Part shown: one piece after another, positions 4,926 to 18,894 of the stretch | How the letters are laid out: every line of letters begins with the position of its first letter | Numbering within the stretch: the stretch's first letter is position 1 | IMG/VR virus record: IMGVR_UViG_3300033076_000737 | Location: 1-25,255 of that record | Strand: one strand, 5' to 3' | Length of the DNA: 25,255 bases | DNA from: a virus | Taxonomy: Duplodnaviria; Caudoviricetes | Program-made: the position numbers and the translations under genes | Notes under the pieces: generated by a model | What the model saw: only the letters and a program-made list of their open reading frames with translations | Told to the model about the DNA's origin: nothing | Databases searched by the model: none

Positions 4926-5020
4926 ACAAAAAGACCCGGCTGGTAGACCGGGTCTTTCTGTCGCTTACCAAGCACCAAATGTAGTTGTTGTTTCCAAACA
5001 TAGTCAGGATTGCTCCTGCC
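4926..5020 (-). ncRNA. Candidate ~95-nt sRNA
   Basis: TTGTGA-N18-TAAACT on minus (5056-5027), 5' CAGGA-GCAA-UCCUG GNRA hairpin, ending in the 4928-4958 terminator. Confidence 0.35.
4928..4958. terminator. Intrinsic terminator, probably bidirectional, between convergent late and leftward transcription
   Basis: Perfect 10-bp stem AAAGACCCGG/CCGGGTCTTT with an A-run on the left (U-run on minus) and TTT on plus. Confidence 0.75.
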
Positions 5021-5054
5021 GCTTGAAGTTTACACTAATCAAGGATTTCTTCAC

Positions 5055-5105
5055 AACTGTTTCCATTATGGAAAATGTTGAACTTGTAATGTTTCTTTAC
5101 AAGTT
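5055..5105. repeat. 51-bp direct repeat copy 2, made of two 25-bp palindromes
   Basis: AACTGTTTCCATTATGGAAAATGTT (5055-5079) plus AACTTGTAA-TGTTTCT-TTACAAGTT (5081-5105), 183 bp from copy 1. Confidence 0.9.
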
Positions 5106-5107
5106 CG

Positions 5108-5190
5108 AAAAAAAGAAACCACTGCTAAGTTACGTACACTTCGTCCGCTACAACTTGCGCCTTCACGGGTGTATATGGCAGTGGCTCATA
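5108..5190 (-). ncRNA. Candidate rod-shaped ~80-nt RNA with paired 5'/3' ends and U tail
   Basis: Closing stem GAGCCACUGC/GCAGUGGUUU, inner UACAC/GUGUA and CCG/CGG pairs, and a U7 tail. -10-like TACAAT and TGGTAGAAT lie upstream. Confidence 0.35.
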
Positions 5191-5218
5191 TGAGTCATTG
5201 TACAAACGGATTCTACCA

Positions 5219-5527
5219 TCACTCTTTGTCTTTGAATTCTGCTTCTGCTATTTCTTCGTCGGTAACCAATCGTGCTACAACTTTAAATGTTCCGTTCCAA
5301 GAAGCCATTGTCCACTGTTTGTGGGCACCTGGCTTCGTACTATCAAACCACAAGATGGAGTCGTCCTCAGCCATATTGAGTTGCTCGAGTAGTAAGTCAA
5401 AAATGTGCATATCATGAATGCAGTCCATGTCCCATACGTTATGATCATATGTTTCTCCTAATCCGTCATATTGTTCAGTTAAACCAACCGTACCCACCAT
5501 GTTGATTTTGTATGTATGTACTGTCAT
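5219..5527 (-). CDS. Hypothetical acidic protein (102 aa)
   Basis: ATG with AGGAG RBS. Last gene of the leftward operon. Confidence 0.7.
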   Translation of the reverse strand: MTVHTYKINMVGTVGLTEQYDGLGETYDHNVWDMDCIHDMHIFDLLLEQLNMAEDDSILWFDSTKPGAHKQWTMASWNGTFKVVARLVTDEEIAEAEFKDKE

Positions 5528-5541
5528 TGTTCTGACTCCTG

Positions 5542-6111
5542 TTACCCTATGGTCTTGATGGTTACTGCCTGAGTTTCTTCATGAACCACAAAACCTGCCT
5601 TCTTGGCATCGGCTGGATGCTCTAGCATGGCAGCCTTGATAGGCTCCGGTAGTTGGCTAACAAGGATGGATTCTTTCAGTTTGATGGCTGATGGGCAGTT
5701 CTTCCTTGCCCACTCCAAAGCCGTCTCCTCGGCCTCTACAGCAACCTTAGGGGCTATTGTTCTAAAGCCAACCGTGCCGTATGGACAAGTCCATGTTTTA
5801 GCCTTTAGCGTCCCGTCTGCTTTGCGTGGTAACTGAGACATTGCGTAGTCTTGCAGCTGTGCGTTGTACTGATGCTCCAGCCATTCAAGCCGTGCCTGAT
5901 GCTTCCCGATGAGTTTCCGGAAGTTCTCCACAATAGCATCCATCTTGGCTTTCTCCGCAAGGATGTTTGCCTCGATGTCCATACGCTTCCGCATAACCAG
6001 GAGCGCAAGGTCTTCAGGGCTTTCATCGCCCTTGATCCAACCAGACGCAGGGCCAGCATACTCGCCAGTCTCCTCATCCCACAGCTCGCCATCAATCACA
6101 TCAAATCCCAT
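5542..6111 (-). CDS. Mu Gam-like host-nuclease inhibitor / DNA end-binding protein
   Basis: Coiled-coil followed by KAKTWTCPYGTVGFR and a LEWARKN motif, as in Mu Gam/Gp157-like proteins. Operonic with ERF. Confidence 0.65.
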   Translation of the reverse strand: MGFDVIDGELWDEETGEYAGPASGWIKGDESPEDLALLVMRKRMDIEANILAEKAKMDAIVENFRKLIGKHQARLEWLEHQYNAQLQDYAMSQLPRKADGTLKAKTWTCPYGTVGFRTIAPKVAVEAEETALEWARKNCPSAIKLKESILVSQLPEPIKAAMLEHPADAKKAGFVVHEETQAVTIKTIG

Positions 6112-6336
6112 TTACTTATCTCCCATCAACTGTTCTGGTGTACCCTTGTGCCAGTACACGTCTTCATACCGATATTCAAAGCAAACCGCATCAAGGTTCT
6201 TTCCTGCTGGCCTTACCCAGTAGCCACGGTCATCCATCGTGACCATCTTATGGTTTGCATACTTACCATCGGTGTAGGTCATGCCGTACTGCATGGCTCT
6301 CTTGAGTAGGAACGCTGCCTCTTCTTTCGTTATCAT
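6112..6336 (-). CDS. Hypothetical protein (74 aa, MITKEE...)
   Basis: ATGA overlap with the upstream gene at 6336-6333. GGGAGG RBS. Confidence 0.65.
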   Translation of the reverse strand: MITKEEAAFLLKRAMQYGMTYTDGKYANHKMVTMDDRGYWVRPAGKNLDAVCFEYRYEDVYWHKGTPEQLMGDK

Positions 6337-6551
6337 CTCACTACCTCCCAATCGTCTCTAACCTTCTGCGCTTCCTTATCGTATAGATCCATTACAGGCG
6401 GGCAGTATGTATATCGATTACCTGATGGTAGATGCACAACAAGATGGTCTTCACCAATGGCTGATAGCCTGATGATCTTGCCAGACTCCCAAGCCTTACG
6501 CCTTATACCCATACCCTCAAAGAGCCGAGGATAAACCTGTCCAAATGTCAT
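6333..6551 (-). CDS. DUF2829 / Tad2-like protein (paralogue 1)
   Basis: MTFGQV..L.EG..IRRKAW...MDL...DDWEVV matches the DUF2829 pattern MxFxxAlxxLxxGxxVxRxxW...DxLAxDWxxv. Confidence 0.6.
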   Translation of the reverse strand: MTFGQVYPRLFEGMGIRRKAWESGKIIRLSAIGEDHLVVHLPSGNRYTYCPPVMDLYDKEAQKVRDDWEVVR

Positions 6552-7033
6552 CGCTGTAAAGGTCTCCCCGGTGCTGGTCTTACTGGCTCATCTATTACGA
6601 TGTTGCCCTGTGGGCCTCTACGGAACGATTCCTGAGGCTTTACCGCCTCGTTGGCATCATCATCCTCATCTGCTGATATTGCGAGCAGAGCGGACACGGA
6701 ATATCTGCGGCCATAAGTAAGAGCTGAACCAAGACCGTGAGCGTCTGGCTTGGTTACCGGGATGGTTACTGTCGTTGCAATCCATTCACCACTTGTATGG
6801 ATGATTCGAGACTCTACGGTGACAGCCTGAAGTGTCTCAGGTTGTTGGCTACCCTGTGTCAGCATCAGTCCGTTTGATGTAAGGATAGGACGCAGTGTGT
6901 CAAGGATGCTGTCAAGCGTTACGTACTTTGAGCGGAAGGCAGGGTTCTTGCCTTCTTTGATGATGCCCTGCATCTGGCTTTGTGCCTTGATGAGGGCGGG
7001 AGCGATAGCCCCGATGGTTTCCGATGTTGTCAT
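6548..7033 (-). CDS. erf: ERF-family single-strand annealing protein
   Basis: KEGKNPAFRSKYVTLDSI and GSALTYGRRYSVSALLAISADEDDDA signature. Confidence 0.9.
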   Translation of the reverse strand: MTTSETIGAIAPALIKAQSQMQGIIKEGKNPAFRSKYVTLDSILDTLRPILTSNGLMLTQGSQQPETLQAVTVESRIIHTSGEWIATTVTIPVTKPDAHGLGSALTYGRRYSVSALLAISADEDDDANEAVKPQESFRRGPQGNIVIDEPVRPAPGRPLQR

Positions 7034-7070
7034 ACTATTATTCTCCCTGCCCCCTTTCGGGGGCTTTTAC

Positions 7071-7250
7071 TCAAACGTACTTTTTGATTTCGCGATCAGC
7101 TGCTTTGATTGCATTTGCCATCGTTGCATATCGCTTCATGAAGCAAACCGAACCACCGAACGAACCACCGTTTAGGTAAACAACACGCGCCATCCACTCA
7201 CCGTGGTGTTCTGTAACTTGCATCATGTAGTTTCCGATTGTCTTTTGCAT
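7071..7250 (-). CDS. Small early hypothetical protein (59 aa, MQKTIG...)
   Basis: ATG at 7250 preceded by GGGAGATAAAGACA. First gene after the consensus promoter. Confidence 0.7.
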   Translation of the reverse strand: MQKTIGNYMMQVTEHHGEWMARVVYLNGGSFGGSVCFMKRYATMANAIKAADREIKKYV

Positions 7251-7285
7251 TGTCTTTATCTCCCGTACTACTGCGGTACACAATG

Positions 7286-7313
7286 ATTATACATCAATAA
7301 TATATATTGTCAA
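7286..7313 (-). promoter_or_regulatory. Consensus host sigma-70 promoter driving the leftward operon
   Basis: TTGACA-N16-TATAAT on the minus strand. Confidence 0.8.
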
Positions 7314-7348
7314 ACACTCGACGGGTGAGTATATACATATGGTATATA
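7307..7348 (+). promoter_or_regulatory. Divergent rightward promoter(s)
   Basis: TTGTCA-N17-TATATA (7307-7335), and TGGTATATA (7340-7348) 6 nt before ATG 7355. Confidence 0.45.
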
Positions 7349-7354
7349 GATTCC

Positions 7355-7576
7355 ATGATTCGAGGATTATCCCAGCAACAGCTGGCACGTAAAATTGGTG
7401 CAACCCAGCCACAGGTATCCGACTGGATGACCGGGAAGAAGACACCAAACAGCGGTAATCTTTCCAAGCTCGCTGAAGCCATGGACATGGCAGAGGAAGA
7501 CTTGGCAAGGTTGCTCACCATTCGTCGTAAGAGTCGGAATAAACCGACCGAACAACCAGAAACATTCGAGAACTAG
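7355..7576 (+). CDS. XRE/Cro-family HTH transcriptional regulator
   Basis: GLSQQQLARKIGATQPQVSDWMTGKKTP...LSKLAEAM is an HTH_3 pattern. ATG 7355 is probably leaderless. Confidence 0.85.
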   Translation: MIRGLSQQQLARKIGATQPQVSDWMTGKKTPNSGNLSKLAEAMDMAEEDLARLLTIRRKSRNKPTEQPETFEN

Positions 7577-7600
7577 ATAAGGTAATAGGGAGACAAGGCA

Positions 7601-7909
7601 ATGAAGCGTTGTAACGATTGTGCGGATCGTGTAGTGGATACAGATGCGATCTGTACTGGTTGCCGTATGGCAGAGTGGAGAGACCAACAGGAGCAGGCAC
7701 GGCAGGCACGAGAGAAGGCTTATGCGCTGGAAGCTCATCGGGCTGCATATCTGAGCCGCAAGAAGGCTATTCGGGACAGCATCAAGGCTGGTGTTATTGC
7801 CGCGATTGGCTTCTTGCTTTTCCTTGCATTGTTCCAAGCCACGAAGGATGCCATGCGGTACGAATGGGAAACAAAACCTGCACTGCTCAGGGCACAAGGA
7901 GTCCGTTGA
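7601..7909 (+). CDS. Hypothetical protein: N-terminal CxxC/CxxC zinc ribbon, coiled coil, one TM helix
   Basis: CNDC...CTGC, hydrophobic GVIAAIGFLLFLALF, GGGAGA RBS. Confidence 0.7.
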   Translation: MKRCNDCADRVVDTDAICTGCRMAEWRDQQEQARQAREKAYALEAHRAAYLSRKKAIRDSIKAGVIAAIGFLLFLALFQATKDAMRYEWETKPALLRAQGVR

Positions 7910-8727
7910 CACCAAGACCAACGACTATACGACAGACGCTCCGGAAGCTGAGAGAAGCCCCGGAGCGTTTGTTGTCTCACGATGAGATGGTACTCCTTCA
8001 TCATGCTTGGTCTGCTGGCATCCATTCAGATGATTGCCTTGATGCTATGATTCGCCATAACTATGCTTTTATCAGGGAAGTCTGCAAGGTCATCAAGCAC
8101 AAGGAACACTTCACAGATGCTTGCCAGTACTGCGTTGATGGTCTTATCAGAGCAATAGAAAAGTGGGAACCTGAGCGTGGGTTGAGGTTCTCAACTTATG
8201 CTCATCCTTGGATCTATCAGAAGCTCAGACGCTACCAAAGCAACCAATACAGAACTATCCGGATTGCTGAACACGCATTGGTCAAGTGGCACAAGTTAAA
8301 GCGGCATTACGTCATCCTTGAACTCGAACTCAAGCGACCACCGACAGATGAGGAACTATCCGAGCGTAGTGGGATGAGCCTTGAGACAATAGACATCTGC
8401 CGTACCGCAGCAGGCATTGAACCAGTCAGCATGGACACTCCGGTACAAGGTTCTGAGCTTGTCTTAGGTGATACTGCTGTTTTTGGTAGCACTCAATCAG
8501 CCGAGGATGAATATCTATCCGAGATTGAAGAAGGAAGCCTGACCGAAGCACTCAGCAAGATGGACGATGAGACACGGCAGATGCTGGTGTTGCACTATGG
8601 CTTAGATGGACGTGTACCGCAGACGATACACATGGTGGCCAGTCGTTACCGTATACCGCCTGTAGTGGTCAAACAAAGGCTCACAGAGGCATTGCAAAGA
8701 TTGAAGGAAACCTATGAAGCATCTTGA
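7906..8727 (+). CDS. Phage-encoded sigma-70-family RNA polymerase sigma factor
   Basis: Region 2 GLIRAIEKWEPERGLRFSTYA, region 3 LKRPPTDEELS, region 4 LHYGLDG. TTG start overlapping the upstream stop, with AAGGAG RBS. Confidence 0.9.
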   Translation: MTPRPTTIRQTLRKLREAPERLLSHDEMVLLHHAWSAGIHSDDCLDAMIRHNYAFIREVCKVIKHKEHFTDACQYCVDGLIRAIEKWEPERGLRFSTYAHPWIYQKLRRYQSNQYRTIRIAEHALVKWHKLKRHYVILELELKRPPTDEELSERSGMSLETIDICRTAAGIEPVSMDTPVQGSELVLGDTAVFGSTQSAEDEYLSEIEEGSLTEALSKMDDETRQMLVLHYGLDGRVPQTIHMVASRYRIPPVVVKQRLTEALQRLKETYEAS

Positions 8728-9073
8728 AGACCGGGAGCAGATAGCCCTTATCACTTGGGTACGGTTGATGGAGTCCAAGCACCCTGAGCTTGCCACGATC
8801 TATCATTGTCCTAACGGTGGGCATAGGGATATTCGGACAGCTGCAAAGTTTAAGGCAATGGGTGTGAAGGCTGGTGTCTGGGATATTTTCCTTCCTGCAC
8901 CTTTACCGGGTCTTTACATTGAAATGAAGGCAGGCAAGGGCAGGCTAACACCGGGACAGGTTGCCTTCAGGGAAGCGTTGGAACCACATGGGTATAAGTT
9001 TGCGGTGGCTTACTCTTGGCATGAAGCCGCACAGGCAATAGCCGAACACGTTGGTTTCACCTTTGATGTATAA
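8714..9073 (+). CDS. VRR-NUC domain (PD-(D/E)XK) nuclease, resolvase-like
   Basis: E..EQ..L..W, HCPNGG, GVKAGVWD, YIEMK.GKGRLT..Q..F motifs. Confidence 0.85.
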   Translation: MKHLEDREQIALITWVRLMESKHPELATIYHCPNGGHRDIRTAAKFKAMGVKAGVWDIFLPAPLPGLYIEMKAGKGRLTPGQVAFREALEPHGYKFAVAYSWHEAAQAIAEHVGFTFDV

Positions 9074-9076
9074 TGT

Positions 9077-9174
9077 GAGTGAACCTATCCTTCAAGGTTT
9101 GGCTTTGCCAGCCCCCGGCTGATCCCCGGGGGTTTCCCTGAGGTAGGTATCTTGAAGGAATAAATAGGTGACTC
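9077..9174 (+). promoter_or_regulatory. Structured leader upstream of the primase
   Basis: TATAAT at 9069-9074. Long-range pairs ACCTAT/ATAGGT and CCTTCAAG/CTTGAAGG enclose two inner hairpins and cover the RBS. Confidence 0.5.
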
Positions 9175-9175
9175 C

Positions 9176-10045
9176 ATGGCTATACCAGCCACGGATGCCG
9201 GGATGGCTATTGCCTTCCTTAGGCATCTATTCAAGCCGTATCAAGACGGTTTTATCGAGATCCGACCTCTCTCAAAGGTCAAGCCCCACGCTAACCGCAC
9301 CACCTACAGGCTGCCCCATTGCCTCAAAGGTGAAGAAGGGCAAGCCCTGACACAGCACATCATGAGCCTTGCGATGCGTGGCTATGATGTTTATGTTGGT
9401 GTGTGTCCAAGGGTTGCTCCTGAAGGGCCGGGGCGCAAGCTCGGCAAAGATTCCATTGAACAGGTTGGGGCAATGTGGGTAGACCTTGATGCCAAAGTAC
9501 CGGGGAGCAGTCAAGGATTACTTGATGGGTGCGACATAGTCGTAAGTACTGGCAACGGTTGGCACGGCTACAAGGTAGCACCAAGCCCTGCTAGAGTATC
9601 AAGCACTAGAGACAGGACAGCGATAGAAGCCAAGGTGCGAAGCTTTGCAAACAGCATCCTAACCGGAACCGATAACGTATCTAACGTTGATCGCATTCTG
9701 CGGGTTCCAGGAACCATCAACTGGAAGGAACCTGACAACCCTAAGCCAGTCGTGATGCTAAAGGGCGGCGGTATCAAACCAACCTATAAGCAATCCTTCA
9801 TAGTTCAACACCTTGGCGATGAACGGCTAGATGCTCTGCTCGCTTCCGCTAAACAAGGGCAGCTTGGAAGGGCTGAACCCCGGATACGTCATGCAAGCGG
9901 TAGGATAACCGACCTGCTAGATGTTTTCTTTCTTGAAGCCGAGGAAGCCTGTATGGCGTTTGAAACTGATTCACGCTGGGAATATAGGCTAAACATTGTG
10001 AAGGCAGACCTGCCTGAGATTTTGGAGTACTTTTTCAATGGATGA
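9176..10045 (+). CDS. RepB-type (AEP superfamily) DNA primase domain protein
   Basis: VYVGVCPR, WVDLD, STGNGWHGY and RILRVPGTINWK motifs. Confidence 0.8.
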   Translation: MAIPATDAGMAIAFLRHLFKPYQDGFIEIRPLSKVKPHANRTTYRLPHCLKGEEGQALTQHIMSLAMRGYDVYVGVCPRVAPEGPGRKLGKDSIEQVGAMWVDLDAKVPGSSQGLLDGCDIVVSTGNGWHGYKVAPSPARVSSTRDRTAIEAKVRSFANSILTGTDNVSNVDRILRVPGTINWKEPDNPKPVVMLKGGGIKPTYKQSFIVQHLGDERLDALLASAKQGQLGRAEPRIRHASGRITDLLDVFFLEAEEACMAFETDSRWEYRLNIVKADLPEILEYFFNG

Positions 10046-11360
10046 TTTCTGGGATATCCCCATCATTCCGGATGCAAAGCCGGAGCGCAAAGACCGTCAA
10101 CGTGGTGAACCTGATAGTGATGGAACGCTTGCAAAGCTCTACCAAAAGCACCCTGAGGGTGGTGGACCATACGGTGGCAGGGATAACGCCATAACTGCTT
10201 ATGTCGGGTATTTACGATCTACACGCATTGACTACACAGCTGGACTCGCTGCGGCTAGGGCTTTCAATAGCGAGTGGTTAGATCCACCGTTACAGGATTG
10301 GGAAGTTGGTGACAAAGTCGGACGTGCTTGGGCTGAATGGGATGAAGGTGTACGGGAGTTGTACACACAGCAGATGGCGGCATCTGAGCTTCTAGCAGAC
10401 AAACTCAAATCACTCGAACCAAAGGAAGACCCAGTCTTTGAAATATGGGACTGGTGGCGATTTAAAGAAGAGGGCATGAACTGCCCCGAAGAAGACTGGA
10501 TTGTGGACAACATGATAATCCACAAGGGCTTGCACTTTATCGCCGCAGGTTCGGGCTCAGGGAAGTCGTGGCTTGGTATTGATCTAGCCATTGCCTGTGC
10601 TTCTGGTAGACCTTGGTGTAACTTTATTGAGACAAACCGAGCAAAGGTTTTGTACATCAATGAAGAGATTGAAAAAAAGAGATTTTGGGGCCGCTTCTGC
10701 ATGATGCATGAAGACGATATACCAAACCTCCATGTCATACAGAAACAAAACACTAAAGTAGACAGGCCTTTCTATGTTGAGAAGTTAGTTCAATACATAA
10801 AGGAACACGAAATACGGTTAGTGATTATTGATACTTTTGTCCGTGTACACAGTATGGACGAGAACGACAATGGAGCAGTGGCTAAACTCTATGATCGGTT
10901 TCACGAGCTTATTGATGCAGGGGCTGCGGTCATTGTCTTGCATCACAACAAGAAGGCTGCACCCGGTACAGCTATTACTCAGGACAGTATGCGTGGAGCC
11001 TCTGATTTAGCCGCACAAGCCGACATGGTGCTGACTATCAACCACGACATCGAAGCCAAGACATATGACGTGCGTACGGTCAAACACAGGCATATCGGAG
11101 AAGATGAGTGGGTTCACTTTGTATACAAGTTGAATGTTGACACTCCAGGGAAGATTGCCATTGAGCAGATAACGAGTGCTGGTTCTGAATCAGAGGTGTT
11201 AGATCGGATTGTTCAATACGTGACAGACAATCCCGGGAAGACCAAAAATGGTATCTGTGCTGGCATAAAGAAAGGCAGAAACTTAGTGTGGGAAACGATA
11301 GCCGATGCCGTGACTTTGCAGCTCATTGAGTGCCGTGAAGGGAAGTATTACAGGCGTTAA
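10038..11360 (+). CDS. AAA_25/RecA-family (RepA-like) helicase with N-terminal PriCT-1-like domain
   Basis: GGRDNA...FN...DPPL...EV (PriCT-like), Walker A AGSGSGKS, VLYINEE, Walker B LVIIDT, LHH.KK and MRGAS. Confidence 0.85.
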   Translation: MDDFWDIPIIPDAKPERKDRQRGEPDSDGTLAKLYQKHPEGGGPYGGRDNAITAYVGYLRSTRIDYTAGLAAARAFNSEWLDPPLQDWEVGDKVGRAWAEWDEGVRELYTQQMAASELLADKLKSLEPKEDPVFEIWDWWRFKEEGMNCPEEDWIVDNMIIHKGLHFIAAGSGSGKSWLGIDLAIACASGRPWCNFIETNRAKVLYINEEIEKKRFWGRFCMMHEDDIPNLHVIQKQNTKVDRPFYVEKLVQYIKEHEIRLVIIDTFVRVHSMDENDNGAVAKLYDRFHELIDAGAAVIVLHHNKKAAPGTAITQDSMRGASDLAAQADMVLTINHDIEAKTYDVRTVKHRHIGEDEWVHFVYKLNVDTPGKIAIEQITSAGSESEVLDRIVQYVTDNPGKTKNGICAGIKKGRNLVWETIADAVTLQLIECREGKYYRR

Positions 11361-11362
11361 AA

Positions 11363-11422
11363 GGTGTACTGAAAATGTGTATCCCCTTAAGAATATTTAT
11401 TAGTACACATTTGAAATACACC
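11363..11422. repeat. 19-bp imperfect inverted repeat around an AT-rich spacer (candidate replication origin)
   Basis: GGTGTACTGAAAATGTGTA / TACACATTTGAAATACACC (16/19) with a 22-bp spacer, immediately after the helicase. Confidence 0.5.
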
Positions 11423-11542
11423 CCCCTCTCTCAGACTCTCACCCCCCAGCCCGAAAAGGGCTGGTTGGGGGAACGATAGGGCGAACCGTGTACCTGCCGC
11501 TAAGGCGGCGGTACAGGTATCGCCAAGAAAGAAGAAAGACAA

Positions 11543-11881
11543 ATGGAAAGACAAAAGAAAGTGCCGATGAACTGGGAACAGCTACAGGCCTACGTGATGG
11601 AAGAACGCAAAGACCCTAAGTGGGAACAGCGATGGCATGGTGTACGTGCGTGGTTGTTGTATGGTGGTAAGGTTTCGCTGGATCGATGGGTGCGCCGAGA
11701 TGACAGAGAAACCTACCTGCGACTCAAAGATGGAAAGGTAGTGCTTGTTCACTGGGACGGTACATGGCAACCATTCTGCACTCTTGATGGTCTTTGCAAA
11801 TATGACACTTATGTCATGATTCCGCATGACTATGCTGGCTTTGAGAAAGTCTATAAGGGGCGGCTCAAAAAAAGTGTTTGA
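11543..11881 (+). CDS. Hypothetical protein, possibly a divergent DUF2829-like domain (paralogue 4)
   Basis: WHGVRAWLLYGGKVSLDRW...YLRLKDGKVVL...WQP..LDGL parallels the DUF2829 layout but lacks a clean DW. Confidence 0.55.
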   Translation: MERQKKVPMNWEQLQAYVMEERKDPKWEQRWHGVRAWLLYGGKVSLDRWVRRDDRETYLRLKDGKVVLVHWDGTWQPFCTLDGLCKYDTYVMIPHDYAGFEKVYKGRLKKSV

Positions 11882-11907
11882 CAGGTCATACCCTTACGGT
11901 ATATATT
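11878..11907 (+). promoter_or_regulatory. Host sigma-70-type promoter upstream of the SSB-like gene
   Basis: TTGACA (11878-11883) followed by TATATA (N16) or TATATT (N18). Confidence 0.55.
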
Positions 11908-11956
11908 CTGTGTGGCAATAGTGCCGACAGACGAGCCAGTGGCTCAAGGAGTAACA

Positions 11957-12442
11957 ATGGGATTTTTTGCACAGCATGGGAAGTTCTCGGAAGGCAGCGG
12001 GAAAAAGTACAGCGTAGCAGAAGCAGGCATCTACGCCTGTGCGCTGATTGACTGCGAAGCAACGCAGGGCAAGTCATTCGACAACCCAGACGTAATGGAG
12101 CCTAACTTTAAGTGGATTTTCGAGACCACTGAGGTAGGCGATGAAGATGGCCAGCCATTCCGCTTTGTACAGTTCACAAAGACCTTTTATGGCAACGAGC
12201 GGGCAAAGCTCACAATCCTGCTCGATGGCATGGTTGGTCGCATGACGGCTCAACAGTTCCAAGCACTTGACATTGATGGACTCAAAGCCAAGCCATGGCA
12301 GGTGGTGGTTGGAACCCGGCAAAAGATGAACGGTGAACTGACAAACATCATCGAAACCGTAAAGCCTGTCAAGGTTGCAGCTACAAAGCCACTGAAAAAA
12401 GTAGTGCAGGAAGATATCACCGACCCGTTTGAAGATGCATAG
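11957..12442 (+). CDS. Putative single-stranded DNA-binding protein (DUF669-like)
   Basis: AGIY.C..ID.E N-terminal motif and acidic ...DPFEDA tail. ATG 11957 with AAGGAG RBS. Confidence 0.6.
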   Translation: MGFFAQHGKFSEGSGKKYSVAEAGIYACALIDCEATQGKSFDNPDVMEPNFKWIFETTEVGDEDGQPFRFVQFTKTFYGNERAKLTILLDGMVGRMTAQQFQALDIDGLKAKPWQVVVGTRQKMNGELTNIIETVKPVKVAATKPLKKVVQEDITDPFEDA

Positions 12443-12502
12443 TAACGGGTAACTTGTAATCGGGGGCAGGGTAACCTGCCTCCATCTTGGGAGATAAAGA
12501 CA

Positions 12503-12838
12503 ATGAAACAAACTAACCAAAGCCTCGCAGAAGCCATCAAAGAGATGGCACAGCACGTCATCAATGTACAGCGTGATTCTTTTGCAGTCATCGACTGCCC
12601 GCTACACATTCAGGTATCCAGCGACCATTCTGAAATCCATATGCGTAAAGGTGCGCTGCACCTCATGGTTGCCATAACTGGCGATGATGCTGGTATCTAC
12701 GACTGCAACTCCATGGGCTACGCTGTCCAGAATCCTTACTGGATTGGTTCACTCAAGCCAGCTGATGTGATTGCAGATATCTGGGCAGTAGCCTACGAAG
12801 TAGACAAAATCATGTCACGGGAAGTGGTGCTCGTTTGA
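12503..12838 (+). CDS. Hypothetical protein (111 aa)
   Basis: GGGAGATAAAGACA-ATG. Coupled to the next gene. Confidence 0.7.
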   Translation: MKQTNQSLAEAIKEMAQHVINVQRDSFAVIDCPLHIQVSSDHSEIHMRKGALHLMVAITGDDAGIYDCNSMGYAVQNPYWIGSLKPADVIADIWAVAYEVDKIMSREVVLV

Positions 12839-13071
12839 CCGGGCATTACCGGACATCCCAGATTCAGGCCCTCAGCGTCATTGACGACTGGGGGCTGGAC
12901 TTTGCAACAGGGAATGTCCTCAAATACATCCAACGAATGCCACACAAAGGTACACCTAACGCCGACAGCATCAAGGCACTCTGGTATTTGGCTTATGCCA
13001 TCACTAGGGACGTTGCCTTTGCTGATCGGATTGCAAGCGAAGCGGGGGAGATAAATGGCGAGACCAAGTGA
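12835..13071 (+). CDS. DUF3310 (SaV-like / T7 gp1.7-like) protein
   Basis: HY...I.A..VI.DW.LDF..GNVLKYI.R...K....D..KA.WYL signature. Confidence 0.8.
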   Translation: MTGHYRTSQIQALSVIDDWGLDFATGNVLKYIQRMPHKGTPNADSIKALWYLAYAITRDVAFADRIASEAGEINGETK

Positions 13072-13465
13072 GAGCGTTGCATATGGCATCGCAAAACGAA
13101 AGTTACTGCTGGAACGCTGGGATGAGCTTGTAGCAATGGGTATGCCACAAGCACAGGCATCCAAAGAGATTGGTTACAACTACTCCACGGTAAAGGTTTG
13201 GCTTGCTAATCGACAGGTCGAGCAGTTGAAAGAAGAAGATGCCAAACGGCTAACAATGGCTGGTGGTTCCTTCTCGGCTGCCCTTGAACGCCTCAGAGCG
13301 GGACAGGCGGTACGAAGACACGGAGCTTCTTGGTTCCTTGAGTTGGTAGATGGCAAGATATGCCTGTACCTGATTGATGGTGCTGGTAATCGACGTTACA
13401 GCAGGGTGGCATCTTTCGGATCCGCTGATGTCTTGGCTACCGACTGGGAGATATACCAACCATGA
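13055..13465 (+). CDS. HTH + DUF2829/Tad2-like fusion protein (paralogue 2)
   Basis: N-terminal GMPQAQASKEIGYNYSTVKVWL (HTH). C-terminal SFSAALERLRAGQAVRRHG...ADVLATDWEIY. Confidence 0.7.
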   Translation: MARPSESVAYGIAKRKLLLERWDELVAMGMPQAQASKEIGYNYSTVKVWLANRQVEQLKEEDAKRLTMAGGSFSAALERLRAGQAVRRHGASWFLELVDGKICLYLIDGAGNRRYSRVASFGSADVLATDWEIYQP

Positions 13466-14091
13466 CAAAGCTTATCTGGATTACACCGGAAGCGGAGAAT
13501 GTCATCGGATACTGCGCCAGAGTTTCCAATCCAAAGAACCAAGATAACCCAGACGTATCCCGGTTACTGTCCTACTGCATCAAGCACGGTCATTGGTCAA
13601 TCTTTGAGATGGCTTCAATGTGCGTTGAGATAAAGACAACCCGTGCTATTGCTCCGCAGATTCTTAGGCATCGGTCATTCTCTTTCCAAGAATTCAGCCA
13701 AAGGTACGCAACGGTTACGGAATATCCTGATGTTCCACAGTTTAGATTAGCAGGAACAACAAATCGACAAAGCTCAATACCAATAGAAGATTATGCGGCC
13801 CTGCCGTTTAGTGTCTGGGAAACAATCAACTCTGCCTGCCTTGCAGTCAATGAAGCCATCGATGCATATGATGCTCTTATCAAGGCTGGCATTGCTGCGG
13901 AGACGGCAAGAATGGTTTTGCCTCTTTGCACACCAACAACCATGTATATGAGCGGCACGATACGGTCTTGGATCCATTACGTGCAGCTACGAACGCAGGA
14001 AGACACACAACTGGAACACAGACAGATTGCAGAGTCCATCAAGGCTTTGATGGTTCAGCATCTGCCAATAACAATGGGAGTAATAGGATGA
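13462..14091 (+). CDS. thyX: Flavin-dependent thymidylate synthase
   Basis: GHWSIFE, RHRSFSFQEFSQRY motif, ETARMVLP, TQLEHR. Confidence 0.97.
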   Translation: MTKLIWITPEAENVIGYCARVSNPKNQDNPDVSRLLSYCIKHGHWSIFEMASMCVEIKTTRAIAPQILRHRSFSFQEFSQRYATVTEYPDVPQFRLAGTTNRQSSIPIEDYAALPFSVWETINSACLAVNEAIDAYDALIKAGIAAETARMVLPLCTPTTMYMSGTIRSWIHYVQLRTQEDTQLEHRQIAESIKALMVQHLPITMGVIG

Positions 14092-14327
14092 GATTCGGAG
14101 AAGTGATACAAGACTTGATGGAAGGTGGCAGTAAAGCCGTATTGCGTAGCGAATGGGGAGAAGCGGTATTTCTGCGGTACTCCGAGCTTTGGAATATCTT
14201 TGAACTGCACGAGCCAGGCGGAAGGGTGACGCAGCTGGAAGAACTAAGCCTTTCACCCGGTGACCTTTTCGCTACTGATTGGGATATCGTTACTTTAGAT
14301 CCACGGACAGGCAAGGTGACTGAATGA
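14088..14327 (+). CDS. DUF2829 / Tad2-like protein (paralogue 3)
   Basis: MRFGEVIQDLMEGG.KAVLRSEW...GDLFATDWDIV. ATGA overlap with the thyX stop and GGGAG RBS. Confidence 0.65.
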   Translation: MRFGEVIQDLMEGGSKAVLRSEWGEAVFLRYSELWNIFELHEPGGRVTQLEELSLSPGDLFATDWDIVTLDPRTGKVTE

Positions 14328-14530
14328 TACTTTTTGCACTCGGTGTCCTGCTTGGTGCGGGATGCTTGGCGGTATATAACGAGATGTATACACGTTGGCT
14401 ATACAAAGACGTAAAGCGTAGAGCGAAACAACAAGGCATCAGCGACGACAAGATGAAGGCTGCCTTACTTTGGGCATCTAACGAAGTCATAAAGGAGAAT
14501 GTAGATGGCAGCACAACCCGGAGCAGGTAG
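14324..14530 (+). CDS. Small protein with N-terminal membrane anchor
   Basis: MILFALGVLLGAGCLAVY hydrophobic N-terminus. ATGA coupling. Confidence 0.65.
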   Translation: MILFALGVLLGAGCLAVYNEMYTRWLYKDVKRRAKQQGISDDKMKAALLWASNEVIKENVDGSTTRSR

Positions 14531-14870
14531 ACCTACCAAGTACACAGAACAGACCGTAACAAAGCTTCTGGAGGCTCTGCGGGGTGGTAACACCCGTAGG
14601 GCTTCCTGTGCTGTTGCTAACATCTCGCAGGATACTCTTGCCGTTTGGCTCAAAGATAAGCCGGAATTTTCGGACGCTGTAGAAAAAGCCGAGGGTGAAG
14701 CCGAGGCAAAGATGGTATCCGTCATCAAGTTGGCATCTGATACGACATGGCAAGCGGCTGCATGGTGGCTTGAACGCAAACACAAGGCCGAGTGGTCAAG
14801 CAGGGTCGAACAAACCGGGGCAGACGGTAGCCCGGTCAAGGTCATCGTGGAGTACGCTGATAAGCCATGA
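14505..14870 (+). CDS. terS: Terminase small subunit
   Basis: GRPTKYT...HTH...W....PEF.DAV..A, WQAAAWWLERK and TGADG.PVKV tail. Upstream of TerL. Confidence 0.75.
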   Translation: MAAQPGAGRPTKYTEQTVTKLLEALRGGNTRRASCAVANISQDTLAVWLKDKPEFSDAVEKAEGEAEAKMVSVIKLASDTTWQAAAWWLERKHKAEWSSRVEQTGADGSPVKVIVEYADKP

Positions 14871-15265
14871 CAGATATACGGTTTCACGGAGTCAAGCCTA
14901 CAAGGGCTACAAAGCATTCTGCCGGGTACGATCTACGCTCACAGATGGACATCATCATTCCGGCTGGTGCTACCGTAGGCATTGACACGGGTACACTTGC
15001 CATCTTCCCACCGCACCTCTGCGCTATGGTCTGCTCTCGCTCTGGTCTTGCCTTGCGTGGTCTTGCTGTGGCTAACGCTCCAGGCATCATTGATGCTGAC
15101 TACGGAGACACCATCAAAGTTCTACTGCACAATCGCACCCAAGGTGATTGGGTTATTGAGAAGGGCGAGCGTATCGCTCAGGTTGTCTTTGTGCAGTACT
15201 TCACGGGTGACGATGTACCGCTAGAAGACCGTGTTGGCGGGTTAGGGTCTACTGGCGTTGCCTGA
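14867..15265 (+). CDS. dut: Trimeric dUTPase
   Basis: All five motifs: AGYDL, RSGLA, GIIDADYG, GERIAQ, R..GLGSTG. Confidence 0.97.
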   Translation: MTDIRFHGVKPTRATKHSAGYDLRSQMDIIIPAGATVGIDTGTLAIFPPHLCAMVCSRSGLALRGLAVANAPGIIDADYGDTIKVLLHNRTQGDWVIEKGERIAQVVFVQYFTGDDVPLEDRVGGLGSTGVA

Positions 15266-16430
15266 TATTCGGCTGGTGCTTCCACGTCCTCACGATGCCC
15301 AGCAGGTGATACTACGGGAAGCCAAGCGATACAACGTGCTGGCCTGTGGGCGTAGGTTTGGCAAGACCACTCTTGGTGGGAATCTGCTATCAGATCCGGT
15401 ACTCAAAGATGGTTTACCGTGTGCATGGTTTGCACCTACCTACCGCCTGCTGGAGGAAGCGTACAACGACCATAAGCGCATCTACGCTCCGGTGATTCGG
15501 CGAGCTGTGCAGACACCTGCTCCACGCATTGAACTTATCACGGGTGCTGCAATCGATTACTGGACTTTGGATGACCCTTCAACCGTTGCCCGTGGTCGTA
15601 AGTACAAGCGGGTCATCATCGATGAGGCCGCCATGGCTAGGCATCTGGAGCAAGCATGGACAGAAGCAATCAGACCGACGCTCACCGATTACCGGGGGGA
15701 TGCTTTCTTTCTATCCACTCCCAAGGGTAGCAACTACTTCAAGAGCCTACACGCTATGGCTGGTGTTGATGAAGACTGGATGGCATGGCAGATGCCTACA
15801 ACCGCTAACCCTTGGATAGACCCTGAAGAAGTAGCCAAGGCTGGGGAGTCCTTGCCATCGATTGCTTTTCGGCAGGAATATCTAGCGGAGTTTGTTGATG
15901 CGGCTGGCGCACGTATCAAGCGGGAGTGGCTACGTTTTTGCGAGGCGCCTGAAGGCTTGCCTGTCTATCTTGGTGTTGACCTTGCCATCAGCACAAAGGC
16001 AGAGGCTGACTATACCGCCGTGGTTGCTCTGAGCCGTGCAGAGGATGGAACCTTGTACGTGCTGGATGTCAACCGTACCCGTGCAGACTTTGCCAGCGTC
16101 CTGCGCTTCATCGAGGCTATGGCTGAGAAGTGGAAACCCGCAATGATAGGCATCGAGCAGGTACAGTATCAGGCCGCTGTTGTACAAGAGCTCATGAGGC
16201 GTACAAAACTGCCGATACGGGGGATACGCCCAGACCGTGACAAGATAACCCGCTTTGCGCCTCTGGAAGCCCGATACGAGCAAGGACAGGTCGTACACGT
16301 TGAAGGCTTGCCATCTTACTGGCAGGATGAGTTATTATCATTCCCGGTTGGCAGGCATGATGACGTGGTTGATGCAATGGCTTATGCTTGGCAAGTCTGC
16401 GGGCAACGTAAAGGCTGGGGGGCGGTATAG
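15258..16430 (+). CDS. terL: Terminase large subunit (Terminase_6-type)
   Basis: Walker A GRRFGKT, Walker B IIDEAA, STPKG, nuclease GVDLA...DYTA and HDDVVDA. Confidence 0.95.
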   Translation: MPDIRLVLPRPHDAQQVILREAKRYNVLACGRRFGKTTLGGNLLSDPVLKDGLPCAWFAPTYRLLEEAYNDHKRIYAPVIRRAVQTPAPRIELITGAAIDYWTLDDPSTVARGRKYKRVIIDEAAMARHLEQAWTEAIRPTLTDYRGDAFFLSTPKGSNYFKSLHAMAGVDEDWMAWQMPTTANPWIDPEEVAKAGESLPSIAFRQEYLAEFVDAAGARIKREWLRFCEAPEGLPVYLGVDLAISTKAEADYTAVVALSRAEDGTLYVLDVNRTRADFASVLRFIEAMAEKWKPAMIGIEQVQYQAAVVQELMRRTKLPIRGIRPDRDKITRFAPLEARYEQGQVVHVEGLPSYWQDELLSFPVGRHDDVVDAMAYAWQVCGQRKGWGAV

Positions 16431-16436
16431 TCTGGT

Positions 16437-16796
16437 ATGCCTGACCTATACACCTATAAACTGCAACAGATAAGCCACATTGATGGAGACACCGTAAGGG
16501 CATCCATTGACCTAGGATTCAACGTCATCCTGACCGATATGCATATTCGCATCTATGGTGTGGACTGTCCAGAGAAGGCAACGATAGAAGGCAAAGCCGC
16601 TCTAGCCTTCACACGGGACTGGATTGATCAACACTGGCTGAGGGAAGAAAAGCCCGTGTACGTGACAATACAAAGCCATAAGCGTGATAAGTACGGACGC
16701 ATCCTTGGTACAGTCTTCAGCGATGGTTCTGTACTGGCTGATGAGTTGAAGACACACGGCCATGCTGTTGAGTACTTTGGCGGGAAGAAGTTATAA
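16437..16796 (+). CDS. Staphylococcal nuclease (SNase/thermonuclease)-like protein
   Basis: IDGDT, IRIYGVDCPE and DKYGRILG motifs. No signal peptide. TATAGT 5 nt before ATG suggests a leaderless start. Confidence 0.9.
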   Translation: MPDLYTYKLQQISHIDGDTVRASIDLGFNVILTDMHIRIYGVDCPEKATIEGKAALAFTRDWIDQHWLREEKPVYVTIQSHKRDKYGRILGTVFSDGSVLADELKTHGHAVEYFGGKKL

Positions 16797-16815
16797 AAAT
16801 ATATCTCTTATATCC

Positions 16816-16844
16816 TTGCAGTATATATACTTAGAGTGTATATT
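16816..16844 (+). promoter_or_regulatory. Moron promoter (host sigma-70 type)
   Basis: TTGCAG-N17-TATATT in an AT-rich patch. Confidence 0.6.
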
Positions 16845-16877
16845 ATTGACATCCAAGGGGATATGGGAGAGACGGAT

Positions 16878-17093
16878 ATGAAACGATACTTGGTTCAGTG
16901 GATGACAAATGATAAGTCTTACGGCTACTACTTCGATGATTTCGCAGACGCTTCGGACTACGCACAAATCACCGGTTGGAAATCTAAAATCAAAGATGTA
17001 ACGACAAACGAAATCATCCTAGCCTTTCAAACAAAAAACAATCAACGCTGGATGATGACATCGGATAAAAAGTGGCATAACTTCAACCGCTAA
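16878..17093 (+). CDS. Moron: AT-rich hypothetical protein (71 aa, MKRYLVQW...)
   Basis: Own promoter, GGGAGA RBS and terminator. Inserted between SNase and portal. Confidence 0.7.
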   Translation: MKRYLVQWMTNDKSYGYYFDDFADASDYAQITGWKSKIKDVTTNEIILAFQTKNNQRWMMTSDKKWHNFNR

Positions 17094-17099
17094 TCACAC

Positions 17100-17125
17100 A
17101 GCCCCCGCAAGGGGGCTTTTTCTTT
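17100..17125 (+). terminator. Intrinsic terminator
   Basis: AGCCCCC-GCAA-GGGGGCT followed by TTTTCTTT. Confidence 0.9.
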
Positions 17126-17149
17126 GAGCGAAGCAGGCCGTAGGCCTTC

Positions 17150-17160
17150 TGTGGGATACT
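17150..17160 (+). promoter_or_regulatory. Late promoter motif TGTGGGATACT, copy 1
   Basis: Exactly 6 nt before the portal ATG, with no SD. Confidence 0.8.
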
Positions 17161-17166
17161 AGGCAC

Positions 17167-18894
17167 ATGGGTATCTTTGACCGCTTCCTTGGTAATAAAG
17201 CCGTAGCAAACCCGACACAGGCTTTGCCGTTACCGCTTAGTCAGTCCCGTGACATCTACCTAACTGGGTATGGCTCTGGTCAGCTGCAAACGCTCTTGCG
17301 TCGTGCGCTTCCAGGTTCTTCAAAAGACTGGTCAAGGGTTGCAGGAGACTTAGGGCTAAACGGGATTGTGGCGGCTGCAATGGACTGGTATGTTCGGAAC
17401 TATCCACAGGCAACACCAAGGTACTACCGACCCGTTGACAGCCAGCAAGCGGAGCCTGTTGAAGACCATCCAGTAATCAAGCTGATGGCTCAACCTGATC
17501 CAATGATTATGGGTTCCCTGTTCTGGTCTTGGGTGATTCAGGACTACAAACTCTTTGGCAATACCTATCTCCGCAAGATACGCTCCACAACCCGTGGTGT
17601 GGTTACTGCGCTCCAGTTCCTTCCGCAAGACATGGTTAGACCAGTGGGCAACGGCACAAACCCGCTAACCCACTACGTGTACACCACTGATGGTCGGAGC
17701 TTTGATATCCCGGTATCCGACATCATCCACATCCGATACAACCGTGACCCGTCAGACATCCGCCTTGGACGCTCTCCTGTCATGGCTGTCCTGCGAGAGA
17801 TTGCCACCGACAACACTGCATCAAGCACTGCATACGGCTTGCTTGCGAATGGGGCTATGCCTAGCCTCATCGTTGGCCCTGATGCTAAAGACCAGACCGT
17901 AGACATCAGCATGGACGATGCCCGGCAGGTCAAGCGGCAACTGCACGAAGACCTAACCGGTGACGGTTCAGGCGGCATCGTTGTCATGACCGGAGCCTAC
18001 AAGATGGACAGGGTATCCTTGACACCGTCTGAGCTTGCTCTGGATTCCGTACGACGTGTACCAGAGGAGCGTATCTGTTCAGCCCTTGGTATCAACCCGA
18101 TGGTCTTGGGTCTTGGTGCTGGTCTTGAGCGTAGCACCTACAACAACTATGAGCGAGCCCAGCAAGCGGCGTGGGAAGATGGCATGGTTCCACTCCTCCG
18201 TGTCCTTGCCGATGCCATTACCGCTGACCTTCTGCCAGAATATCCAGAAACCAAAGAGGGTGACTATGTACAGTATGACCTTGAGCAGGTTAGGGCGTTG
18301 GCTGATGACCTAGCGGCTGAGGCAGACCGCGCAGAGAAACTGTACAAGGCTGGAATCATTGACCGTGCGGAAGCCAAGCGCATTGCTGGTCTTGAAGCCG
18401 TGCCAGAGGATGAAGGACAGTTACACCCGCAAGCAATCCCGGTACAGACTACCGATGCTCCTGTCCCTGCAATCCGGTCTTTCGAGATGAAGTACAGACC
18501 TAACGCTGGCATGAAGGAAGCCGCACAACGTGCCCTTGATTGGAAAGCTGAAGGGTTCGATGGTGGCACACGGGTAGGCTTGGCAAGGGCAAACCAGATC
18601 GTAAATGGTGAGCAACTATCTGAAGACACCATACTCCGGATGTATTCGTTCTTCTCTCGTCATGAAGTCGATAAGCAGGCTGAAGGCTTCAATGCTGGTG
18701 AAGATGGTTTTCCTAGTGCTGGGCGTGTAGCCTGGGACTTATGGGGCGGTGATGCTGGCTTTAGATGGGCAACATCCAAGCGCAATCAGATCATGGGTGA
18801 GGAAGGCAAGAGCCTTGATTGTTGCACTCCGGGGGTAGTGTACAAGTCTCACCCTTTTTACGGGTACGAGCTGGAAACAGTCTCAAGCGAGTAG
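17167..18894 (+). CDS. Portal protein (HK97 family) with extra C-terminal domain
   Basis: HP...L...P, LFGN.Y, DIIHIR, GRSP, ICSALGINP..LG...STYNN motifs. About 135 aa of extension after a linker. Confidence 0.92.
   Translation: MGIFDRFLGNKAVANPTQALPLPLSQSRDIYLTGYGSGQLQTLLRRALPGSSKDWSRVAGDLGLNGIVAAAMDWYVRNYPQATPRYYRPVDSQQAEPVEDHPVIKLMAQPDPMIMGSLFWSWVIQDYKLFGNTYLRKIRSTTRGVVTALQFLPQDMVRPVGNGTNPLTHYVYTTDGRSFDIPVSDIIHIRYNRDPSDIRLGRSPVMAVLREIATDNTASSTAYGLLANGAMPSLIVGPDAKDQTVDISMDDARQVKRQLHEDLTGDGSGGIVVMTGAYKMDRVSLTPSELALDSVRRVPEERICSALGINPMVLGLGAGLERSTYNNYERAQQAAWEDGMVPLLRVLADAITADLLPEYPETKEGDYVQYDLEQVRALADDLAAEADRAEKLYKAGIIDRAEAKRIAGLEAVPEDEGQLHPQAIPVQTTDAPVPAIRSFEMKYRPNAGMKEAAQRALDWKAEGFDGGTRVGLARANQIVNGEQLSEDTILRMYSFFSRHEVDKQAEGFNAGEDGFPSAGRVAWDLWGGDAGFRWATSKRNQIMGEEGKSLDCCTPGVVYKSHPFYGYELETVSSE

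Follow-up and report, generated by a model that had tools for sequence, protein, structure and literature searches.

Why would a single small phage carry several divergent genes of the Tad2 type? The question is raised by IMGVR_UViG_3300033076_000737, a complete 25,255-nt contig of a tailed phage with both ends open, which was analysed over its full length and is called the window here. An initial annotation had described three to four Tad2-like open reading frames (ORFs) in it, termed genes A, B, C and D below (Table 1; B being the weaker match), and had read them as a diversified panel of sponges, that is, proteins that sequester immune signals such as glycocyclic ADP-ribose (gcADPR). All four ORFs are present as described. 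In the reading put forward here, A, the C-terminal domain of C, and D, together with B as a predicted remote relative, are stripped-down Tad2 domains and represent this phage's share of a swappable kit kept by its clade, which would counter host defences through ligands other than gcADPR; we give this reading a probability a little short of even. The observations from which the argument starts are the homology of A, C and D, purifying selection on them, their presence and absence among sister phages, gene overlaps of the translational-coupling type (ATGA), and the loss of most residues of the known ligand pocket.

The sequence evidence for A, C and D comes from profiles. Against the Tad2 family of Pfam (PF11195, formerly DUF2829; cut-off 25 bits), A scores 25.0 bits (E 2.9e-5), D falls just below the cut-off with 24.8 bits (E 3.1e-5), and residues 72–134 of C lie below it with 22.6 bits (E 1.5e-4). 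Iteration of a profile from D through the ORFs of 86 related loci brings in A (E 2.5e-18) together with C (E 7e-6) at the third round, but B at none. A joint profile finds no match at E<1 among 11,037 reversed ORFs, which means that the motif common to A, C and D is not due to chance. In addition, a profile built from 36 clade paralogues alone recovers all seven solved members of the Tad2 family (E 2e-9 to 1.5e-6) and has no further match up to E 10, while PF11195 matches 34 of the same 36 paralogues at E≤0.1. Profiles are required for this result, since a search of PDB sequences with D as a single sequence gives no Tad2 match. The Tad2 matches of the A-family profile by itself are non-significant (E 0.09–1.1), and the C-family profile ranks SPO1 Tad2 second (E 0.0017).

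The three domains are mutually divergent, as first described, with about 30% pairwise identity (18–20 identities over 57–67 aligned positions). In hhalign, A and D align with a probability of 94%, and C and D with 25%. The shared motif reported for all four genes is present only loosely: C lacks the W of RxxW, A has an insertion of 6–7 residues in DLxAxDW, and B lacks the DW. The N-terminal half of C, which had gone unmentioned, is a helix-turn-helix (HTH) domain. Its match to HTH_28 (E 1.3e-3) is below the cut-off, and its Atlas cluster (0.93) has HTH_23 in 60% of members.

Gene B is linked to this family by predicted structure only. By sequence, no Tad2 link is found in Pfam, PHROGs, PDB, iterated profiles, hhalign or the Atlas; PF11195 matches none of 18 members of the B family at E≤1, and hhalign gives B 7% against the paralogue set and 3% against C. 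The AlphaFold2 (AF2) model of B has a mean predicted local distance difference test score (pLDDT) of 73, and its elements follow the order seen in Tad2. In a comparison of this model with 48,161 chains by VIA, two Tad2 representatives rank first (Z 6.8 and 6.4; next 5.1), with a root-mean-square deviation (rmsd) of 2.5–2.7 Å over 60 residues and Z scores below 8, where common arrangements occur. Foldseek gives a probability of up to 0.90 against Tad2 at a non-significant E of at least 0.3, and ranks a mitoribosomal protein at the top. The family assignment made for all four genes thus stands for A, the C-terminal domain of C, and D, and the likely count is three paralogues and one probable remote fold-mate, B.

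The model of D is closer to Tad2. The best model (pLDDT 82; the other four, 41–53) consists of an N-terminal helix and a five-stranded antiparallel sheet, with a short helix preceding the last strand, which is the Tad2 fold. Foldseek matches it to Tad2 with a probability of 1.00 and a template modelling (TM) score of 0.62–0.69, and VIA gives Tad2 Z scores of 9.3 (rmsd 1.9 Å over 65 residues) and 9.1, with the next match at 5.5. The model has no β2-β3 insertion, as there is no helix between strands 28–32 and 37–41, and clade paralogues aligned with solved Tad2 have gaps of 13–35 residues at the insertion site.

When four copies of D were modelled together, the complex scored 0.74, compared to 0.00 for the best of three controls, with a partner pLDDT of at least 84 and contacts that agree in at least 71% between runs. 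Of 30 solved pairs, 20 attain the mark set for such scores, as does 1 of 23 single chains; likeness to solved Tad2 may lie behind the score of D. The confident contacts (residues 2–11, 31, 36–38, 51–57 and 60–61) form an interface made by helix 1, residues 51–57 and the last helix. By comparison of residue lists, not by superposition, this predicted interface corresponds to the helix-1/last-helix interface that bears the ADP-ribose-type pocket of solved Tad2. Tetramer models had been proposed for these proteins; in the models made here, D is predicted to fold as Tad2 and to self-associate, but the confident interface is dimeric, with one two-fold only.

What the copies have lost is most of the known ligand pocket. 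In SPO1 numbering, which is used throughout, Tad2 contacts gcADPR through W25, W73, N26, D79 and T78, and S76 coordinates a water (Yirmiya et al.). In HgmTad2, the mutants W21A/N22A and S90A/T92A/D93A show markedly reduced gcADPR binding (Li et al.). Gene A keeps W25 (its W21) and D79 (D55), has Y49 at the W73 position, and lacks N26, S76 and T78; a W occurs at the W73 position in 5 of 13 members of the A family. C keeps D79 alone (D125), having lost W25, N26 and W73, and D keeps W25 (W23), S76 (S56) and D79 (D59), with N26 replaced by G, W73 by L and T78 by G. N26, W73 and T78 are therefore replaced in every window copy (A, C and D). Across the clade, where the counts are motif-based and not structural, most members carry D79 in 26 of the 44 subfamilies, and RxxW in 28. 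The core positions F3, G13, R and the final W are kept although pocket residues are mostly lost. A second Tad2 pocket, which binds cyclic dinucleotides or cUMP in HgmTad2 and MoTad2, requires the β2-β3 insertion.

Published activity data bear on these contacts. Among 16 Tad2 rows of Table S2 of Hadary et al. (bioRxiv 2025.08.24.671296), namely 15 of the 18 homologues that the preprint reports and the SPO1 control, 11 of 13 that have W73 showed validated inhibition of one system or more. Tad2_72 and Tad2_79 lack N26 and are still active, so N26 is dispensable; Tad2_79, which also lacks D79, inhibits type I and type IV Thoeris. According to the same preprint, Tad2 homologues vary in ligand, and 19 of 84 sponges inhibit none of seven systems.

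Related phages carry many more such domains. In 205 related loci and the window, 550 Tad2-like domains (346 distinct) fall into 44 subfamilies at less than 50% identity; the loci overlap, include near-identical strains and are not independent. A subset of 80 loci was picked by the gene labelled SSB-like (for single-stranded DNA-binding protein), which avoids selecting for D. This label, like that of the Cro-like gene below, was assigned from context, with no database match naming either. In the 69 of these loci that span SSB to the large terminase subunit gene terL, the interval holds one Tad2-like domain in 7 loci, two in 24, three in 24, four in 10, five in 3 and seven in 1. The C domain is found in 68 of the 69, with one exception of implausibly short span (L098), and D is found in 40 and thyX in 27. 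Moreover, 22 of the SSB-selected loci cover Gam to Erf, and 9 of these have A; B occurs in 26 of 55 loci that cover helicase to SSB, and one locus (L043) has six Tad2-like copies in tandem. The copies in the window are a sample of the larger kit that the clade carries. A quick tree of 85 domains, based on 84 columns, is mostly unresolved.

Wherever upstream sequence suffices, the C domain is joined at its N-terminus to one of two further domains, represented by 48 and 46 distinct sequences, with 2 unassigned. The second type shares an aligned invariant A and W with the HTH type, but has no Pfam match and only a 1% profile probability to the HTH type. The Tad2-like profile also picks up 5,305 clusters (50% identity) outside the clade. 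Among the 149 top matches, 132 hold 2–5 domains, in a ranking that favours multi-domain proteins, and RxxWNG occurs in 17 of their 295 domains. Three proteins of other genomes (P0231, P0233 and P0234) are single polypeptides with 3–5 tandem mini-Tad2 domains and up to 711 residues, and in one relative (L054:8552-9130) a single frame holds two Tad2-like domains of subfamilies that are separate genes in L067 and L142. L205 (CAZVZC010000030.1), a distant relative with 62% capsid identity, has an HTH-Tad2 gene followed by three Tad2-like genes. The L205 capsid-gene match lies in a contig filed under the metagenome-assembled genome of an uncultured archaeon; it is possibly mis-binned, and an archaeal host was not adopted.

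The ratio of nonsynonymous to synonymous substitution rates (dN/dS) is 0.12 for A, 0.11 for the C domain, 0.10 for the HTH of C and 0.14 for D, and other genes range from 0.06 to 0.17 (thyX 0.15; terS, the small terminase subunit gene, 0.16). A, C and D are under purifying selection, and the expansion of Tad2-like domains is real and maintained by selection. For B, a single usable pair gives 0.16.

C and D flank thyX, as had been observed, with ATGA overlaps. A functional tie to thyX was rejected: thyX is found in 27 of 69 loci and the C domain in 68, so the flanking looks incidental. All 27 thyX loci have the window-type HTH on C, but thyX accompanies the other type in L044 and L055, and with loci that are related to one another the association is read as linkage.

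The ends of the kit genes have features in common. An ATGA overlap ends 176 of 237 genes, and GGAG or GAGG stands just 5′ of the next start in 147 of 237, where the codons for DWE(I/V) often supply the GGAG. In one close relative (L087, L082 and L152 are the same contig), the 27-nt C/thyX junction occurs as two perfect copies 269 nt apart around another Tad2-like gene; it is single-copy in L041 and the window. The window does not represent a clean empty site of this cassette, as a different gene follows the second repeat in L087. A general direct-repeat insertion mechanism was likewise rejected as not above null, with single cases only (27, 19 and 14 nt).

Table 1. Coordinates of the Tad2-like genes and other features of the window.
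Feature	Position	Strand	Description
A	6333..6551	-	72-aa mini Tad2-like protein between Erf and Gam-like gene; optional
B	11543..11881	+	112-aa protein, may start at Met9; residues 29-94 with predicted Tad2-like fold; optional
C	13055..13465	+	N-terminal HTH (about residues 14-52) and Tad2-like domain (72-134); core gene heading the variable slot
thyX	13462..14091	+	Flavin-dependent thymidylate synthase; Pfam Thy1 E 6e-44; optional cassette in the slot of C
D	14088..14327	+	79-aa acidic mini Tad2-like protein; isoelectric point (pI) 4.5, net charge -8
C/thyX junction	13441..13467	+	27 nt; DWEI codons with GGAG ribosome site, and ATGA overlap
Promoter-like site	7286..7313	-	Perfect sigma-70 consensus, 12/12; 5′ of leftward run g7071, Erf, A, g6112, Gam
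Promoter	11878..11907	+	Sigma-70-like, 11/12, palindromic spacer; heads SSB-like, g12503, DUF3310, C, thyX, D
Divergent promoter region	7275..7330		Beside the Cro-like HTH gene; contains TTGATGTATAAT
Cro-like HTH gene	7307..7576		Start near 7355 according to relatives
Recurrence of TTGATGTATAAT	9063..9085		Upstream of primase gene
SSB-like gene	11912..12442		
Sigma factor	7906..8727		Phage sigma-70-type; regions 2, 3 and 4
AAA_25 helicase	10038..11360		
terL-portal gap	16437..17093		SNase-like nuclease and 85-aa gene; optional
Hairpin	7049..7064	+	GC-rich, terminator-like; between Erf and g7071
Hairpin	17100..17117	+	GC-rich, terminator-like; before portal

The promoter-like sites of Table 1 suggest that A and the other kit genes are expressed early. 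The promoter scan is overall no richer than shuffled sequence (7 sites versus 12.7), and the rightward promoter is conserved, with a score of at least 10 in 50 of 77 distinct upstream regions. Its spacer co-varies with the type of the Cro-like repressor: all nine "TATCC.C" rows with a repressor in view have the 51–56% type, and 10 of 13 "ATACC" rows have the 79–99% type, which makes a repressor-operator pair likely. The palindromic spacer occurs with every N-domain type of C. Because the spacer tracks the Cro-like repressor and not the N-domain of C, simple autoregulation by C at the SSB promoter is argued against; of the features of an Aca-like mode, HTH and palindromic spacer are present but do not co-vary. 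The element TTGATGTATAAT of the divergent promoter region beside the Cro-like gene recurs upstream of the primase gene.

The remainder of the window is that of a tailed phage, with genes for terminase, portal, major head protein, lysin, Erf, a Gam-like protein, the Cro-like HTH protein, sigma factor, primase/helicase, thyX and dUTPase. No tRNA genes were found in the window, and positions 5000–17200 hold no long repeats beyond terminator-like hairpins and short matches; the two hairpins are a related pair (GCCCCC-loop-GGGGGC and a T run). The sigma factor exists in two divergent versions among relatives (~80% and ~42% identity). In most relatives with 80–90% identity in the adjoining genes, the AAA_25 helicase reaches only ~40%, which suggests allele replacement. 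The nuclease and 85-aa gene between terL and portal are missing from most relatives.

Close IMG/VR relatives have a terL identity of 87–98%, on contigs of up to ~32–35 kb and, in one case, 62 kb. No close isolate was found among 50,697 phage records, and no relative of D in GTDB genomes. Sequencing runs that contain part of the window are labelled, in the subset of runs with labels, as estuary, riverine, aquatic, freshwater, marine and wastewater. RNA-library contigs of relatives span most of the region; these were not used as evidence, as contigs cannot show transcription and may derive from DNA. Relatives also carry other cargo between SSB and terL, where a scan of 42 proteins found N6/N4 and C5 methylases, Mom, GTP cyclohydrolase, PTPS, radical SAM, formyltransferase and TAGT. 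In the terS slot, such cargo lies at L154:245-1273, L132:2693-3745, L073:3542-4282, L175:319-1978, L095:15815-16366, L097:2820-3704 and L153:1380-2033, and comprises N6/N4 methylase, C5 methylase, Mom, radical SAM with PTPS, GTP cyclohydrolase I, TAGT glycosyltransferase and formyltransferase; the window has none there. The methylases, Mom, 7-deazaguanine-pathway genes and glycosyltransferase are presumably cargo of the anti-restriction type.

Solved Tad2 proteins include SPO1 Tad2/gp34.65 (8SME/8SMF/8SMG, 8WJE), MoTad2/ModTad2 (8V3E, 9EIB), HgmTad2 (8KBI series) and SptTad2 (8WJD). The window copies resemble these sponges in sequence family (A, the C domain and D), in the fold and predicted self-association of D, in small size and in being phage-encoded. 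Unlike them, the window domains have 66–79 residues compared to 88–104, lack the W-N-G loop, have W73 and T78 replaced, and occur as several divergent copies in swappable slots, one of them fused to an HTH. The D model lacks the β2-β3 insertion, and the window copies are known from sequence and models only.

AcrIIA7 from Phocaeicola dorei (PDB 9KZR) also has a Tad2-family core with an N-terminal helical extension, as C does, and a basic groove on its tetramer core accommodates tracrRNA (Lee and Park, PMC13133391), so the fold is able to bind structured nucleic acid. Its two-helix head is not described as an HTH, it has the long insertion and a canonical pocket, and D is acidic where AcrIIA7 has a basic RNA groove. 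The tested protein most similar in architecture to D is Tad2_80 (bioRxiv 2025.08.24.671296), which has 73 residues with RxxW-P-D, lacks both N26 and W73, and carries S-x-G-D ahead of its final DW; it belongs to a different subfamily and inhibited none of seven systems. Tad2-Acb4 and Tad2-Sequestin (Tal et al., PMC12265669) likewise join Tad2 domains to other modules and widen their function, but their partner is another sponge family, whereas here there is paralogue expansion and an HTH partner. The functional diversity of Tad2 is already published (Hadary et al., bioRxiv 2025.08.24.671296). Five clade motifs and five contig identifiers do not appear in Table S1 of that preprint, in which a positive control was found. 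No published account of multi-copy mini-Tad2 arrays or HTH-Tad2 fusions was found in a search that lay outside most subscription papers and the bioRxiv supplements of other preprints.

If the kit counters host defences through ligands other than gcADPR, its genes would be expressed early from host-type promoters, and each subfamily would assemble into a small homo-oligomer whose protomers enclose a pocket of their own, re-lined to take a nucleotide-like ligand. Cassettes would be gained, lost and swapped through recombination at look-alike gene ends in a phage that encodes Erf and Gam. In C, the constant head of the slot, the Tad2 domain would serve a DNA-binding protein for oligomerisation or sensing and not act as a bulk sponge. 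Several results weigh against this. W-N occurs in none of 337 distinct clade domains and W73 in 6, and several subfamilies lack W25 and D79 too, so the pocket may not exist at all. The rows without W73 in Table S2 of Hadary et al. (one truncated, one of 73 residues) were active in none of three cases on the seven systems. The model of D is confident for the dimer interface only and not for a tetramer, the purifying selection on A, C and D equals the housekeeping level and gives no sign of an arms race within subfamilies, and junction homology is not above null overall (identity 13.6 versus 13.6 of 35; a shared word of at least 12 nt in 10 of 237 versus 3.3%). Loss of pocket with retention of the core fits a somewhat unlikely alternative that deserves serious weight, in which the mini-Tad2 fold serves as a binding scaffold for macromolecules (structured RNA or DNA, host or defence proteins) and the variable middles are the binding surfaces. 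AcrIIA7 is a precedent in the same family, the pI values of A, B and C are in the neutral to basic range (7.9–9.4; A, the B core and the C domain each have a net charge of +1), and weak structural neighbours include SH3/Sm-like nucleic-acid binders (WYL domains, mitoribosomal proteins; Z 2.5–4.9). These neighbours are at background Z, however, and the acidic D, the net negative charge of most subfamily representatives and the retention of D79 in 26 of 44 subfamilies speak against such a scaffold.

The near-constant presence of C, its fusion to one of two N-domains and the same arrangement in distant L205 would also suit a kit that regulates the phage programme and not host immunity. C would then be a transcription regulator, ligand-sensing or controlled by oligomerisation, and tuned by stand-alone copies that hetero-oligomerise with its Tad2 domain; the tandem polypeptides of 2–5 domains common elsewhere indicate that unlike domains can sit together. 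Given that the promoter spacer follows the Cro-like repressor, that the second N-domain has no Pfam HTH match and that C lacks W25, N26 and W73, this is quite unlikely. Slightly less probable again are ordinary Tad2 sponges for known signals (3′cADPR, His-ADPR, N7-cADPR, cyclic dinucleotides, cUMP/cCMP), each with its own specificity. The family and fold matches favour them, as do the W25, D79 and aromatic residue of A and the activity of Tad2_79, but N26 is missing from 337 of 337 domains and W73 from 331, the second-pocket insertion is absent from the D model, Tad2_80 was negative, and the HgmTad2 pocket mutants bind far less gcADPR. The loss of N26 and W73, taken with the inactive published rows that lack W73, makes a classical gcADPR sponge panel unlikely, and a gcADPR/cyclic-dinucleotide panel is weakly supported. 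Of the diversified sponge panel first proposed, the diversification stands, with 44 subfamilies going beyond what one phage shows, but most of the characterised sponge contacts are replaced. Finally, the genes could be largely passengers that do little themselves: short units whose conserved 3′ end favours their spread, as it provides the ribosome site of the next gene and a handle for recombination. The ATGA overlaps, the GGAG/GAGG sites and the one cassette with perfect 27-nt flanking repeats are what such units would leave, but dN/dS of 0.11–0.14 over whole domains, 44 intact subfamilies that recur in unrelated loci and thousands of matching clusters elsewhere disfavour this reading, which is very improbable.

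For the reading of a kit directed at host defences through other ligands, these results mean that a PF11195 match should not be read as anti-Thoeris activity, since there are short forms without the published contacts. In a bolder and unlikely version, the clade keeps 44 or more mini-Tad2 binders as a recombining library against undiscovered immune signals, and their one constant member, the HTH-Tad2 protein C, acts as a transcription factor that changes expression on sensing such a signal. If this were true, C would be a phage sensor or regulator built from a sponge fold. Sponges have already served as bait that exposed the new immune signals 3′cADPR and His-ADPR (Hadary et al., bioRxiv 2025.08.24.671296). 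The 44 short, selection-maintained variants of the Tad2 fold in this one clade would be a ready library with which to fish for unknown signals or targets.

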